From: Trueperaceae bacterium
GTDB taxonomy: Bacteria; Deinococcota; Deinococci; Deinococcales; Trueperaceae
Length of the DNA: 64,000 bases
Assembly (NCBI GenBank): GCA_965215565.1
Contig: CBDCDZ010000004.1
Span: forward strand, 2,048,001 to 2,112,000
Direction: 5' to 3'
Part shown: positions 30,640 through 37,102 of the stretch, in pieces
How the letters are laid out: every line of letters starts with the position of its first letter
Position numbering within the stretch: position 1 is the first letter of the stretch
The notes under the pieces: model-generated
The model's input: only the letters and a program-made list of their open reading frames with translations
What the model was told of the DNA's origin: nothing
The model's database searches: none
Position numbers and translations under genes: made by a program

Positions 30640-30732
30640 CTGAGTTTGAATAACGCAGCTATCATCTTAGTATGTGAGTTCTAGTCGATTCTTTCTCGAG
30701 TGAGCCCATCTCTGACCAGATAATACCTGCTA
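30640..30732 (-). repeat. Repeat family B, copy 2; its TAG is the infA stop codon
   Basis: Minus strand TAGCAGGTATTATCTGGTCAGAG...AGATGATAGCTGCG...CTCAG. Confidence 0.75.
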
Positions 30733-31017
30733 TTTTCTGTAAACGATGCGCCCTTTTTCAGGGTCATACGTGCTGATTTCTAAAACGACGCGGTCTCCAG
30801 GAAGGATGCGGATGTAGTGGCGGCGCATCTTGCCGCCGACGTGGGCTAAGATTTCGGGACCAGCGTCGAGTTGGATTAAAAACGTCGTGTTGGGGCGCGC
30901 CTCTAGGACGACCCCTTCGGTACGTATCGTGTCTTGTGTGGTCTCTTCCGGGCTCTCCCGCTCTTTGCGGGGTCCACCGCGGCGGCGAGCGCCACTGCCG
31001 GATTTTCTACGCGCCAT
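30730..31017 (-). CDS. infA: Translation initiation factor IF-1 with a basic N-terminal extension
   Basis: [44 protein letters not shown] before MARRK. Confidence 0.95.
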
Positions 31018-31819
31018 AAGCGCCTCCTTCCGCCACAAGCGCGCGGGGCGCTTGGTTGTGAGCGGTGAGAATTCGCGGACCGTCAACGGTAATCGCGACG
31101 GTGTGTTCGAAGTGCGCGGAGAGGCTGCCATCTGCGGTGGGAGCCGTCCAGCCGTCCTGTAAGATACTGACCGTGGTTTCGCGTTGCGTCACCATCGGTT
31201 CAATCGCCAAGACGAGACCGGGGCGTAAACGTGGACCTGTTCCTGCGCGTCCATAGTTGGGTACGTCGGGACCTTCGTGAAAGCTACTGCCGATGCCGTG
31301 ACCGACAAACTCCCTGATTATCCAAAAGCCTGCCGCCTCAACAACGTCCTGGATTGCCACGGAAACGTCGCCGAGCCGGTTGCCTGCTTGCGCGGCTTCG
31401 ATGCCTGCGTAGAGCGAACGCTCCGTAACATCCAAAAGCCGCTGTGCTTCAGGCGAGACCCGACCTACGCGGTAGGTCTTCGCCATATCTGCAGCATACC
31501 CCTTATAGAAGGTGCCGATGTCAACGGAGAGAACATCACCTTCCTTGAGGGGCTTGTTATCTGGGATACCGTGAACGACGATATCGTTGACTGAGGTGCA
31601 GAGCACGCCGGGAAAGGGGACGACAGAGTCGGAGGAGCCCCGGTAGCCCTTGAAGGCGGGGCGTCCACCACGCGAGCGAATTGCCTTCTCCGCAATCCGG
31701 TTGAGCTGCGCCGTCGTCGCGCCAGGTTTGATGTGCGGTTCGATACTCTCTAAAGCCTCACGGTTCACCACAGCAGCCTCCGCCATCAGCTCGATCTCGG
31801 CTTGGCGCTTCAAGATCAA
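31007..31819 (-). CDS. map: Methionine aminopeptidase type I
   Basis: [36 protein letters not shown]. Confidence 0.97.
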
Positions 31820-32379: not shown

Positions 32380-33699
32380 CTAAAAGCGCCTTCCGCGTCC
32401 GCGAATGCGCCCTTTGCTGACGAACCCGTCGTAGTGACGCATCATCAGTTGCGACTCCATCTGGCGGAGCGTGTCAAGCGAGACGCCGACAACGATCAGC
32501 AGACCGATTCCCGAGAAGACGAGTGAGAGCTGACCGACGCCCGTCATCCAGCCCAAAATCTGCGGCAGCGCGTTGACCGCGCCCAAGAAGAGCGCACCCC
32601 ACAAGGTGATGCGGTTCGTGATGCGGGTGAGGTGGTCCGTCGTAGGCTGGCCGGGGCGGACGCCTGGGACGAAGCCGCCGTACTCGCGCAAGTTCTCGGA
32701 GATGCGGCGTGGGTCGAAGGAAATCTGCGTGTAGAAGTAGGTGAAGAGCACGATGAGAATGGTGCTGACGATCAGCCCTTGCCACTGCTGCGGCGCGAAC
32801 CACGCGCCTAGCGACTGCACCCAAGCGACATCTGGGAACGCTGCAATGATCGTGCTCGGGATGACGATGACCGACACCGCGAAGATGACCGGAATGACGC
32901 CCGCCGCGTTTAAGCGAAGCGGAATGTAGGTGCTCTGTCCACCCATGACGCGCCGCCCAACAACTTTACGGGCATACTGAACCGGAATGCGGCGCTCAGC
33001 TTGTTGCACCAAAACCATCCCGGCTATGGCGATGACTAACAGAGTAAAGAAGATGAGCAGCCCGAAGATATTCGACTCACCCGTACCGATAAGCGCGAAC
33101 TGCTGGCTGATGGCGTTCGGATAGGCAGCGACGATGCCCGCGTAGATGATGAGCGAAATCCCGTTGCCGATGCCGTACTCGGAAATCTTCTCGCCGAGCC
33201 ACATGACGACGGAAATCCCCGCAATCTGGGTGATCATGACGACGATCCACAAGAAGGGACCGTTGCTCCAACCCACCTTGAGCGCACCCGATTGACCGAT
33301 CAGCGCAATCGCGAGGAAGAGTCCCTGAACTGCACCGAGCGCGGTCGCGCCGTAGCGCGTGTACTGCGTGATCTTGCGACGTCCCTCTTCACCCTCTTTG
33401 GCGAGTTTTTCAAGAGGTGGGTAGACCGAGGTGAGAAGCTGGATGATAATGCTCGCCGTGATGTAAGGGATGACGCCAAGCGCAAAGATCGAGAACACTT
33501 CGATGTTGCCACCTGTGATGAACCCCAAGAGGTCAAAGACGCCGCCACGCTGAGCGAAGTTCGCCTGGAGCGCGTCAGCGTCCACACCGGGTGTAGGGAT
33601 GAAGACCCCTAGCCGGTAGATGGCTAGGAGCCCGATGACCACCAAGAGCTTCTGCCTCAGGTCAGGGATGACGAGCGCGTTGCGAAACGCGGCGACCAT
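32380..33699 (-). CDS. secY: Preprotein translocase SecY
   Basis: SIFALGVIPYITASIIIQLL, GIGNGISLII, GGFVPGVRPG. Confidence 0.98.
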   Translation of the reverse strand: MVAAFRNALVIPDLRQKLLVVIGLLAIYRLGVFIPTPGVDADALQANFAQRGGVFDLLGFITGGNIEVFSIFALGVIPYITASIIIQLLTSVYPPLEKLAKEGEEGRRKITQYTRYGATALGAVQGLFLAIALIGQSGALKVGWSNGPFLWIVVMITQIAGISVVMWLGEKISEYGIGNGISLIIYAGIVAAYPNAISQQFALIGTGESNIFGLLIFFTLLVIAIAGMVLVQQAERRIPVQYARKVVGRRVMGGQSTYIPLRLNAAGVIPVIFAVSVIVIPSTIIAAFPDVAWVQSLGAWFAPQQWQGLIVSTILIVLFTYFYTQISFDPRRISENLREYGGFVPGVRPGQPTTDHLTRITNRITLWGALFLGAVNALPQILGWMTGVGQLSLVFSGIGLLIVVGVSLDTLRQMESQLMMRHYDGFVSKGRIRGRGRRF

Positions 33700-34442
33700 T
33701 AGCTCTGCTCCTCGTCGTCCGCCGCGCTTTCAGATGAACCATTCTCTTCAGGGCTCGAGGGCGCTTCGGATACACCCTGGCTCATATTGTCACTCTCTGG
33801 ACCTGACTGCGTTTCTTCCGGCGAGTCGATGACGGTTTTTCCGTTGTCGTCCTCGTCGTCCCCGCTCTGCGATTCGTTTGACTGAGGTGCGCTTTGAGCT
33901 TGGACCTCTTCATCTGACTGAGCAACCTCTTGATCAGCTTTTTGAGTCGAGACCTCTTGGTTGGTAGCTTGACTCGAGCCCGCCTCTTCCTGCGCACTCT
34001 GCCCAAGACCCACGACACTTCCACCTGCATCCTGCACCGCTTGGGCTGCGCCGCGGCTGCAGGCGTCTAGCTCGAGCCGCAGATTTCGCACCGTCAACTC
34101 GCCGTCACCCAAGAGCTTCACAGGACGGTTCGCATGGCGAATCACACCCGCGTTGCGAAGCGCTTCAGCGTTCACCGTGCTGCCCTCGTCGAAATCATTG
34201 AGGTCACGCAGGTTGATGATCTGGTATTCAATCCCTTGATGCGTAAAGCCGCGTTTGGGGAGGCGCATGATGAGGCGGCTGCGTCCGCCTTCCCAACCGG
34301 AGCCCTGCGAGAAACCACTCCGGCTGGCCTGCCCTTTTTGACCGCGCCCGGCGGTTTTGCCGCGCCCGCTGCCCAAACCGCGTCCGACGCGGCGGCGCGA
34401 CTTCTTCGCGCCGGGGGCTGGTTTTAAGTCGTTGATCTTCAT
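33699..34442 (-). CDS. rplO: 50S ribosomal protein L15 with an acidic C-terminal tail of about 100 aa
   Basis: RVGRGLGSGRGKTAGRGQKGQ, RLPKRGF, VKLLGDG; GGAG SD before MKIND. Confidence 0.95.
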   Translation of the reverse strand: MKINDLKPAPGAKKSRRRVGRGLGSGRGKTAGRGQKGQASRSGFSQGSGWEGGRSRLIMRLPKRGFTHQGIEYQIINLRDLNDFDEGSTVNAEALRNAGVIRHANRPVKLLGDGELTVRNLRLELDACSRGAAQAVQDAGGSVVGLGQSAQEEAGSSQATNQEVSTQKADQEVAQSDEEVQAQSAPQSNESQSGDDEDDNGKTVIDSPEETQSGPESDNMSQGVSEAPSSPEENGSSESAADDEEQS

Positions 34443-34542
34443 ATTCAAGTCTCTCCGTAATGATTCTGCGGGCGTGGACCACGAATGAATCGTAGTCCTT
34501 AACCGCTAAACGCTGCTAAAATCTTGCAGATTTTAGCAGGAA

Positions 34543-35648: not shown

Positions 35649-36188
35649 TTACCTTGCTGCCGCTTTGCCGGCTTTGAGTCGGACTTGCTCGCCCTCGTAA
35701 CGCACGCCTTTACCGTGATACGAGTCGGGCGGGCGTACCTCACGGATGTTCGCCGCCACTTGACCGACGAGTTGTTTGTCGATACCTGAGACCGTGATGC
35801 GCGTCGCTTCGGGCGCAGCAATCGTAATGCCTTCGGGCGGCGTGATGACGACGGGGTGGGAGAAGCCTAACGCAAGCTCTAGGTTCTGCCCCTTCATCGC
35901 GCAGCGATAACCGACGCCCTGAATCTGCAAGTTGCGGGTGAAGCCTTCCGTCACGCCGACGATGGCGTTGTTGATGAGACTCCGCGCTAAGCCGTGCTGA
36001 GCACGGTCATTGCGGTTGTCGGTAGGACGCTCGACGTGGATTTCACCGTCTTCTTGCTTGACCGTGAGACGCGGGCTGACGGGAACTGTAAGCTGTCCTT
36101 TAGAGCCTTTGACGACGACTTCGGTCTTCTTGATGTCTACGTTCACGCCGCTCGGGACGGTGACGGGTGCTCTGCCGATTCGAGACAT
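35649..36188 (-). CDS. rplF: 50S ribosomal protein L6
   Basis: MSRIGRAPV, LGFSHPV, RPPDSYHGKGVRY. Confidence 0.98.
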   Translation of the reverse strand: MSRIGRAPVTVPSGVNVDIKKTEVVVKGSKGQLTVPVSPRLTVKQEDGEIHVERPTDNRNDRAQHGLARSLINNAIVGVTEGFTRNLQIQGVGYRCAMKGQNLELALGFSHPVVITPPEGITIAAPEATRITVSGIDKQLVGQVAANIREVRPPDSYHGKGVRYEGEQVRLKAGKAAAR

Positions 36189-36583
36189 TACCAGACCTCG
36201 CAAATCACTTCGCCGCCGACGTTCTTTCGGCGGGCATCGCGGTCTACCATCAGGCCTTGCGGGGTGGAGATCACAGCGATACCAAGTCCTCCGCGTACCA
36301 CCGGAACCGCTTTCGCTTTGCTGTAGGCGCGGCGTCCGGGTTTGGAGACGCGGGTGAGTTCGTTGATGATCGAGGTGCGCTTGGGTCCATACTTGAGCCC
36401 GATGCGGATGACGGGATGCCCGTCTTTGGTTGCGTCCTCAACCGACTTGAGGTAGCCCTCGCGCACGAGCACCTCGGCTAACGACTTCTTGAATTTACTC
36501 GCTGGCACGTCCACGGTGGCGGAGGCGATCGCCGCGCCGTTGCGGATGCGGGTCAGCATGTCAGCAATAGGGTCTGTATACAT
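36188..36583 (-). CDS. rpsH: 30S ribosomal protein S8
   Basis: DPIADMLTRIRN, RVSKPGRR, GLGIAVIST, GGEVICEVW. Confidence 0.98.
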   Translation of the reverse strand: MYTDPIADMLTRIRNGAAIASATVDVPASKFKKSLAEVLVREGYLKSVEDATKDGHPVIRIGLKYGPKRTSIINELTRVSKPGRRAYSKAKAVPVVRGGLGIAVISTPQGLMVDRDARRKNVGGEVICEVW

Positions 36584-36606
36584 TACCTATTGTCCTTTCT
36601 TTTGAC

Positions 36607-36697
36607 GGTGTACCACGTTTCGTATGCACGAAACGTGACACCTTTATCTTCTTTCTGGCGAGGTTGGTATCAGCGCAATCACGCTGACCATCACCTC
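36607..36697 (-). promoter_or_regulatory. Candidate S8-binding mRNA element: two tandem helix-21-like hairpins
   Basis: mRNA GGUCAGCG-loop-CGCUGAUACC and GUGUCACGUUUCG-loop-CGAAACGUGGUACAC, ending about 10 nt before the rpsH SD. Confidence 0.55.
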
Positions 36698-36719
36698 TGG
36701 AAAACGGTTTCTGTGTTTA

Positions 36720-36842
36720 TAGCAGGTATCATCTGGTCACAAACGCCCTTAGCGAGAAATACTCCTAGACAATTATGTTCGTGGATGATAGCTGCGCCCT
36801 TCTATTTCTCAAGGCTAATAGAGACTTGAAGTGGCAGTTCTA
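36720..36842 (+). repeat. Repeat family B, copy 3 (right end uncertain)
   Basis: TAGCAGGTATCATCTGGTCA...GGATGATAGCTGCG. Confidence 0.7.
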
Positions 36843-36916
36843 CGGACCGGTTTAAGCGGAAGAGGTTTTGCATCTCGGTTCTACTTGTAATGTCCGAGAT
36901 GAGATGCTACCTCTCT

Positions 36917-37102
36917 TTACCAGCTCGCCTTACGCACGCCGGGCAAATACCCGCTATGCGCCATCTCGCGCATACAAATTCGGCAGAGACCGAAGTCACG
37001 CATATAGCTCTTGGCGCGTCCGCAGCGCTGGCAGCGGTTCACCCCTCTGGTCGAAAACTTAGGCGTCCGTTTGGACTTTGCGATATGTGCTTTTGTTGCC
37101 AT
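36917..37102 (-). CDS. rpsN: 30S ribosomal protein S14, zinc-binding type
   Basis: 61 aa with RCQRCGR...[16 protein letters not shown]. Confidence 0.97.

Follow-up and report, generated by a model that had tools for sequence, protein, structure and literature searches.

A candidate uS8 operator in the rpsN-rpsH spacer of Deinococcota and a dispersed repeat that resembles it

Introduction

The site bound by the ribosomal protein uS8 in helix 21 (h21) of 16S rRNA relies on a (G597-C643).U641 triple, an invariant A642 and a 595.(596-644) triple (PMC4176348, available text). In E. coli and Gammaproteobacteria, a mimic of this core serves as the S8 operator of the spc mRNA, where it sits at the start of rplE, the one S8 operator described in these sources (PMC3616713; PMC10931766, section 2.6; available parts). 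A further precedent is found in the E. coli str operon, in which the uS7 operator blocks coupled translation (PMC10931766; PMC3616713; available parts). Regulation of spc outside E. coli and Vibrio is stated to be unknown in the available text of a 2024 review (PMC10931766, section 2.6), and the available part of PMC7247131 (Table S1) gives an S8 r-leader for Gammaproteobacteria only and adds no S8 leader.

Here, we analyse a 64,000-nt stretch of DNA (the window) from a Trueperaceae bacterium, for which an earlier note had proposed that two hairpins upstream of rpsH, the uS8 gene, form a double S8 site and a candidate new leader. Judged from its sequence and that of its homologs, the first hairpin is most likely an autogenous translational operator of uS8.

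The locus and its spacer

The window carries the S10-spc ribosomal-protein cluster on the minus strand, as read from the list of open reading frames (ORFs), and the spacer between rpsN and rpsH measures 333 nt (36916-36584). The features of this region are:

36917-37102, minus strand: rpsN (uS14), the gene 5' of the spacer (ORF; tblastn query against related loci)
36857-36915, minus strand: imperfect hairpin immediately 3' of the rpsN stop, a low-copy repeat outside the leader (fold)
36716-36796, no strand assigned: high-copy dispersed inverted repeat (REP/MITE-like), a spacer insertion outside the leader (arm copy count)
36660-36697, minus strand: hairpin 1, candidate uS8 operator (fold, core identity, covariation)
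36605-36643, minus strand: hairpin 2, an internally deleted repeat copy of 39 bp (repeat copies, relatives, fold)
36593-36600, minus strand: Shine-Dalgarno (SD) sequence AGAAAGGA, 9 nt 5' of the AUG (complementary to the 3' end of the genome's 16S rRNA)
36188-36583, minus strand: rpsH (uS8) (ORF)
35649-36188, minus strand: rplF (uL6), the first gene 3' of rpsH (ORF)

Both hairpins are found on the mRNA strand of the spacer exactly as described earlier, in letters and coordinates (hairpin 1, 36697-36660; hairpin 2, 36642-36607). The proximity of hairpin 2 to the SD is likewise correct, with the distance to AAAGGA revised from about 10 nt to 8 nt (6 nt to AGAAAGGA). Hairpins 1 and 2 are more stable than shuffled sequences (z -4.0 and -4.9, respectively; 0/200 shuffles equally stable), and no intrinsic terminator is found on the mRNA strand at either of them. 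Further downstream, the rpsH stop overlaps the rplF start (TAATG), and because of this overlap rplF is predicted to be translationally coupled to rpsH. In the encoded uS8, the A642-contacting tripeptide retains its S-T and the conserved Tyr is kept as well, both features being present in 8/8 aligned proteins; the third residue of the tripeptide is P, shared with a solved Thermus-type S8.

Two other elements of the spacer are repeats. An 18-mer from the arm of the hairpin that follows rpsN (36857-36915) has 8 matches in the genome versus 1 for the reversed control, and this hairpin was not seen in the spacer of the relative G001. For the repeat at 36716-36796, the arm 20-mer yields 289 matches with at most 2 mismatches versus 0 for the reversed control; the genome thus holds its arm some 290 times, and this repeat is sometimes nested within the element of about 87 bp described below for hairpin 2. 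The stretch (36796-36716) contains GAUAC, and we dismissed it as a third S8 site because it is a high-copy repeat. A sigma-70-like match (36812-36785; 10/12) overlaps the same repeat, its -35 differs in the relative G002, and with 1 match found versus 0.6 expected it is not significant as an internal promoter. An A-rich ACA(C/A)AGAA-like stretch (36720-36705 in the window) recurs just 5' of the leader in several spacers of the families termed f1 and f2 below. Elsewhere in the window, the C-terminus of the uL15 ORF (33699-34448) is extended by about 100 aa of acidic, low-complexity sequence, and an IF-1-like ORF (30730-31131) of uncertain start codon may bear a basic N-terminal extension before the usual domain.

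Hairpin 1 contains a conserved h21 core

Hairpin 1 is built from a 5-bp lower stem, a 3x1 lower loop above it and a 7-bp capped upper stem. In 16S numbering, G596 corresponds to position 36689, G597-U598-C599 to 36688-36686 and G639-A640-U641-A642-C643-C644 to 36671-36666. The h21 of the genome's own 16S rRNA reads A596-G597-U598-C599 / G639-A640-U641-A642-C643-U644, and G597-U598-C599 / G639-A640-U641-A642-C643 are identical in both RNAs. Outside this core, h21 has an A596-U644 pair, one bulged A595 and a long helix leading to the junction, whereas hairpin 1 combines a G596-C644 pair with two additional unpaired bases on the 5' side and the capped upper stem. Within 28001-52000, a strict direct core (GUC strand first) on the minus strand is confined to hairpins 1 and 2, compared with 0 on the plus strand as a control; the scan of this interval found no core at rplE and one weak permuted match (32250) inside adk. 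A looser pattern applied to the whole genome was uninformative, with thousands of matches and just as many in the control.

We located rpsH in 39/41 genomes and examined all 39 loci; loci L203, L206, L271 and L273, from four unpublished genomes, are left out of all counts in this study. In a scripted test, a core is present at most 130 nt from the rpsH start in 37/39 Deinococcota loci, compared with 1 on the antisense strand, 0 inside rpsH and 2.7% in shuffles. By family, the core is found in 22/23 cases in f1 and 12/12 in f3-f5. Family names are inferred from named records with the same spacer type (f1 Trueperaceae-like, f4 Thermaceae-like), and f2 is presumably Deinococcus-like.

In an alignment of 37 cores, which were chosen by motif search and for which covariation was counted irrespective of relatedness, 91.8% of cells are paired and 12/14 pairs have double-sided changes. 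The paired fraction and the covariation score are each matched by 0/500 shuffles, and slid controls pair to 37-50%. Hairpin 1, conserved, covarying and identical in its core to the genome's own 16S rRNA, holds up as a mimic of the S8 site directly 5' of rpsH. Moreover, hairpin 1 differs between this genome (G000) and G002, both of which carry the hairpin 2 insertion, by a compensatory change.

Residues G596, G597, A642, C643 and C644 are invariant in 37/37 aligned cores and include residues called critical for S8 binding in the available text of PMC4176348. The S8-type arrangement of G597-C643, a bulged 641 and A642 is present in every one of the 37. Position 641 itself is U, A or G (19, 9 and 9 of 37), and by a mapping made in this analysis the E. 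coli operator, in which two A's are bulged, also implies A641. Residues 596 and 644 pair in 37/37 cores; over the leaders as a whole, the 596-644 pair is seen as G-C, C-G, U-A or A-U, and the same kind of swap occurs between 16S rRNAs. Position 595 pairs with 645 in 23/37 (595/645 combinations: U-A 10, C-G 10, A-U 2, U-G 1, A-G 10 and A-A 4), and 595 is an A opposite A or G in 96/119 matches to the broader pattern described below. With a 3x1 lower loop, and with 595 and 645 frequently paired, the leader may not form the A595.(596-644) triple, and the Deinococcota form is not a perfect copy of h21.

The likeness to h21 might be incidental, with hairpin 1 being a structural spacer, a DNA operator or the site of some other protein: the core spans a short stretch of about 10 nt, and GGTC...ACC comes close to a palindrome. 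However, the bases that do not vary are precisely those critical for S8, the core is kept through circular permutation, and it lies before the S8 gene itself. Furthermore, the mRNA strand of the leader shows G-U pairs far more often than A-C, as expected if it is the RNA that counts. We regard an incidental likeness as very improbable, and binding of uS8 to hairpin 1 is highly likely.

Model R1, built from the hairpin 1 homologs and representing the direct form, has its best match in this genome at hairpin 1 (E 4e-9; next 0.55). It matches 67/141 genomes of the phylum (f1 8/8, f3 8/8, f4 40/46, f2 10/78); the low yield in f2 is explained by the restriction of R1 to that form. The best 30 phylum matches all fall within the rpsN-rpsH spacer, as do 12/15 further fetched ones; weak matches (E 0.01-0.05) are unreliable, with 3/15 fetched lacking a nearby rpsH. 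Hairpin 1 is accordingly a covarying conserved structure found consistently 5' of an r-protein gene, as is expected of an r-leader.

Rfam 15 gave 0 gathering-score matches in the window and a single irrelevant microRNA match (E 0.89) in 18 homologous loci. Hairpin 1 is absent from the compiled r-leader tables in the available part of PMC7247131 (Table S1), and literature searches, whose coverage excludes most subscription journals, returned no paper on an rpsH leader. The available text of PMC11109978, a study with 30 ribosomal-leader candidates, does not mention rpsH; one supplement file of PMC8632094 contains no match, and the available part of a 2026 preprint has no mention of rpsH.

A proposed feedback mechanism and its precedents

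How might hairpin 1 act? We propose that uS8 in excess over 16S rRNA would bind hairpin 1 and stabilize it beside the ribosome-binding site, so that rpsH and the genes coupled to it downstream would see less initiation or re-initiation. What is blocked would be either 30S loading beside the SD or re-initiation by ribosomes that have translated rpsN. This scheme draws on the E. coli spc and str precedents, and translational feedback via hairpin 1 is likely.

The spc S8 operator and hairpin 1 are both h21-core mimics in the spc mRNA and share their predicted ligand and feedback logic. However, the spc operator spans the rplE start, whereas hairpin 1 is non-coding, is located in the rpsN-rpsH spacer and would control rpsH onward. 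Moreover, hairpin 1 has an rRNA-like topology (GUC strand first), G596-C644 and a 3x1 lower loop, unlike the spc operator. Hence, since its position and (here) its topology differ, hairpin 1 is not a member of that family, even though it is predicted to work like it. The uS7 operator, which lies in the rpsL-rpsG spacer of E. coli str, resembles hairpin 1 as an intercistronic rRNA mimic before the ligand's own gene (PMC10931766; PMC3616713; available parts), but ligand, structure and operon all differ.

An SELEX-derived uS8 aptamer with a symmetric 5x5 loop (PMC4176348, available text) has G-C at 596-644 and three 5' bases versus one 3' base, like hairpin 1, which we take as no more than a resemblance. 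Its 597-643 pair is A-U and it contains a U-(A-U)-U quartet, whereas the leader has G597-C643 and 595-645 covariation. The candidate RNA HMP2_4246 (61 nt; Bifidobacteriaceae; PMC8040213, 2021) is described as directly upstream of RpsH, and bifidobacterial records bear the motif studied here. In the available table rows and passages, HMP2_4246 is unnamed and no ligand or mimicry is proposed for it; it may be the same RNA as the hairpin 1 leader.

The position of hairpin 1 relative to the start codon varies. The lower stem stops only a few nt short of the SD in most loci of f1 and of actinomycetes. In f1 genomes other than G000 and G002, 14-33 nt separate the end of the core from the AUG, and g26 has a hairpin that begins at the rpsN stop. 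In G000 and G002, insertions put hairpin 1 82 nt from the AUG and about 220 nt from rpsN. Hairpin 2 is most likely a later insertion of a shortened repeat, which moved hairpin 1 from about 30 to 82 nt before the AUG. Since hairpin 1 is far from both the AUG and the rpsN stop, control may be weaker in this genome. A conserved alternative fold that hides the SD was not found in f1.

Alternatively, uS8 might bind hairpin 1 with mRNA processing, decay or transcription control as the outcome in place of blocked initiation. This would agree with a site-to-AUG distance that differs between families, with values between 14 and about 200 nt, with the mRNA destabilization that forms part of E. coli spc control (PMC10931766, available part), and with several f2 spacers in which, by eye, a terminator-like hairpin after rpsN and TG-N-TACACT before the site can be seen. 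However, no U-tailed terminator follows hairpin 1, and the placement of the lower stem next to the SD in most f1 and actinomycete loci argues for an effect on initiation. We consider this alternative quite unlikely and favor translational feedback.

Hairpin 2 is a copy of a dispersed repeat

In contrast to hairpin 1, the second half of the double site found no support in the analysis. Hairpin 2 is the shortest copy of a genus-specific imperfect inverted-repeat element of about 87 bp. Its right arm has 18 matches in the genome versus 1 for the reversed control and its left arm 15 versus 0. Left and right arms form 20 pairs within 300 bp in G000, of which 13 span 84-88 bp and hairpin 2, with 39 bp, is the shortest. 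Copies of the right arm number 18, 15 and 26 in the genus, which is represented by three genomes, and 0-2, similar to the control, in 28 other genomes. We scanned 12 ORFs beside the 19 other copies and found Pfam families in 11 (a binding protein, two histidine kinases, ProRS, RecA and others), with no ribosomal protein among the 12.

Comparison with relatives agrees with this assignment. The orthologous site in G001 is empty and lacks 51 nt, and one contig of a public run (one sample) skips the hairpin 2 stretch, with two contig sets otherwise confirming the DNA. In G002, the orthologous hairpin 2 has broken 596-644 and 600-638 pairs, which flank the core, and folds with two single bulges. 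R1 does not match hairpin 2 at E up to 10. Unmatched by the model, absent in G001 and broken in G002, hairpin 2 falls outside the leader family, and we reject it as a conserved second S8 site.

Hairpin 2 presumably belongs to the class named MITE or REP-type dispersed inverted repeats. Like these, it is short, intergenic and multi-copy, its terminal inverted repeats are imperfect, one relative has the site empty and the flanks are weakly similar. In comparison with a MITE, no mobilizing enzyme was identified: arm pairs up to 3 kb apart, as expected of a partner transposase with the same ends, gave none that was convincing. The target duplication is only suggestive (flank identity 0.52 versus 0.33, the best of 100 settings with several similar).

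Could both hairpins nevertheless be uS8 sites, with hairpin 2 exapted from the repeat as part of a double operator? Hairpin 2 does have G597-C643, U641, A642 and U596-A644. Its U598.G640 is found in one natural leader (L014) and its U596-A644 in three (L277-L279), it is the only one of the 20 copies with a change that closes the 600-638 pair, and it is situated 6 nt from the SD, the place of hairpin 1 in relatives. Moreover, true tandem cores occur in some Thermaceae-like genomes, namely in 6/7 g29 and 2/2 g34 spacers examined, which were chosen via model matches and in the case of g34 have a second core seen by pattern only. However, the GUC/GGUAC letters are general to the arms of the repeat family, whose 12 scanned neighbors include no ribosomal protein; the S8-like look of hairpin 2 in G000 rests on one substitution in 1/20 copies, and the empty site in G001, the broken pairs in G002 and the silence of R1 speak against it. 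A double operator is therefore unlikely in our view. The S8-like core of hairpin 2 is probably incidental, and hairpin 2 is probably not a selected second site. The case thus illustrates how a dispersed repeat can be mistaken for a second site of protein binding.

The right arm of hairpin 2 might also provide an extended -10 element that bypasses hairpin 1, given that 6/20 copies of the element end 12-25 nt before an ORF on the same strand. However, the right arm of hairpin 2 lacks the last T, and the odds of this idea are low. The element of about 87 bp, with 19 copies in G000:C4 besides hairpin 2 (e.g. 2160227-2160313), has conserved terminal repeats with two extra bases in one arm, a variable center and a fixed length.

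Variants and spread of the element

Of 30 f2 genomes, 28 have a circularly permuted core, in which the GAUAC strand comes first, compared with 0 on the antisense strand and 0.6% in shuffles. The two exceptions, inspected by eye, have a loop 1 base over the limit and a direct-like variant, respectively. An alignment of 25 of the 28 permuted cores has 94.6% paired cells and double changes in 9/14 pairs. The direct-form test gave 12/30 in f2 (antisense 4, inside rpsH 4), which is too noisy to count. The f2 form shares the permuted topology of the E. coli spc operator, as mapped here from published numbering, and a lower loop of three 5' bases opposite one 3' base is common to the direct and permuted topologies. 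Because the core persists under circular permutation with covariation, it is the RNA shape that is kept and not the order of the DNA.

Several side observations concern these spacers. In f2 loci L280-L305, the permuted core lies 93-202 nt 5' of rpsH and is often followed by further hairpins that look conserved and by a stem overlapping the SD. In six f2 loci (L287-L290, L295 and L303), a direct GGCC/GGAACC core is present in addition, some 32 nt from the start. By eye, a terminator-like hairpin can be seen behind rpsN in several f2 spacers, along with a -10-like TG-N-TACACT upstream of the site. Tandem direct cores, the second of which has U599-A639 or U599-G variants, are seen in L028, L315-L317, L320, L321, L326 and L327, which represent two f4 genera. 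At L011 (G009), rplE runs straight into the leader and rpsH; the S8-like hairpin is retained and no rpsN is found in the 3.4-kb locus.

Beyond Deinococcota, a pattern combining the core with an rpsH start found 119 loci in 7/64 parts of GTDB, corresponding to an estimated 1200 or so. By title and counted by eye, these are 90 Actinomycetota, 14 Gemmatimonadota, 9 Deinococcota and 6 others; separately, in 90 of the 119 the core is directly continued by two or more stacked pairs. In a sample not selected for the motif, drawn from the class of a Streptomyces genome (Actinomycetes), the core is present in 20/27 loci (antisense 5, inside rpsH 2, shuffles 4.4%), and several of the 7 misses show the motif by eye. 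An even draw across the phylum Actinomycetota gave 0/27 with loops limited to 30 nt and many short spacers, and a draw from the phylum of a Gemmatimonas genome (Gemmatimonadota) gave 4/24 with shuffles near 6%. The element is patchy, since many lineages in the unselected samples are without the core. A metagenome scan for close relatives returned 0 matches.

On balance, the chances are slightly in favor of the rpsN-rpsH spacer harboring a widespread, undescribed class of uS8 operators in Deinococcota, Actinomycetes and part of Gemmatimonadota, in which the ten-base core would be a movable module that is rRNA-like in most lineages, permuted in Deinococcus-like genomes and truly tandem in some Thermaceae-like ones. 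If true, this class would be the main answer to how spc feedback control is achieved outside Gammaproteobacteria. An element of 40 nt for which both the ligand and the critical bases are predicted makes the spc question testable in tractable hosts of Thermus, Deinococcus and Streptomyces, and the direct, permuted and tandem forms in one phylum offer a natural series for the evolution of rRNA mimics. In addition, two actinomycetotal loci from outside the main class (L201 and L212) have possible G599-C639 variant cores before rpsH, as seen by eye.
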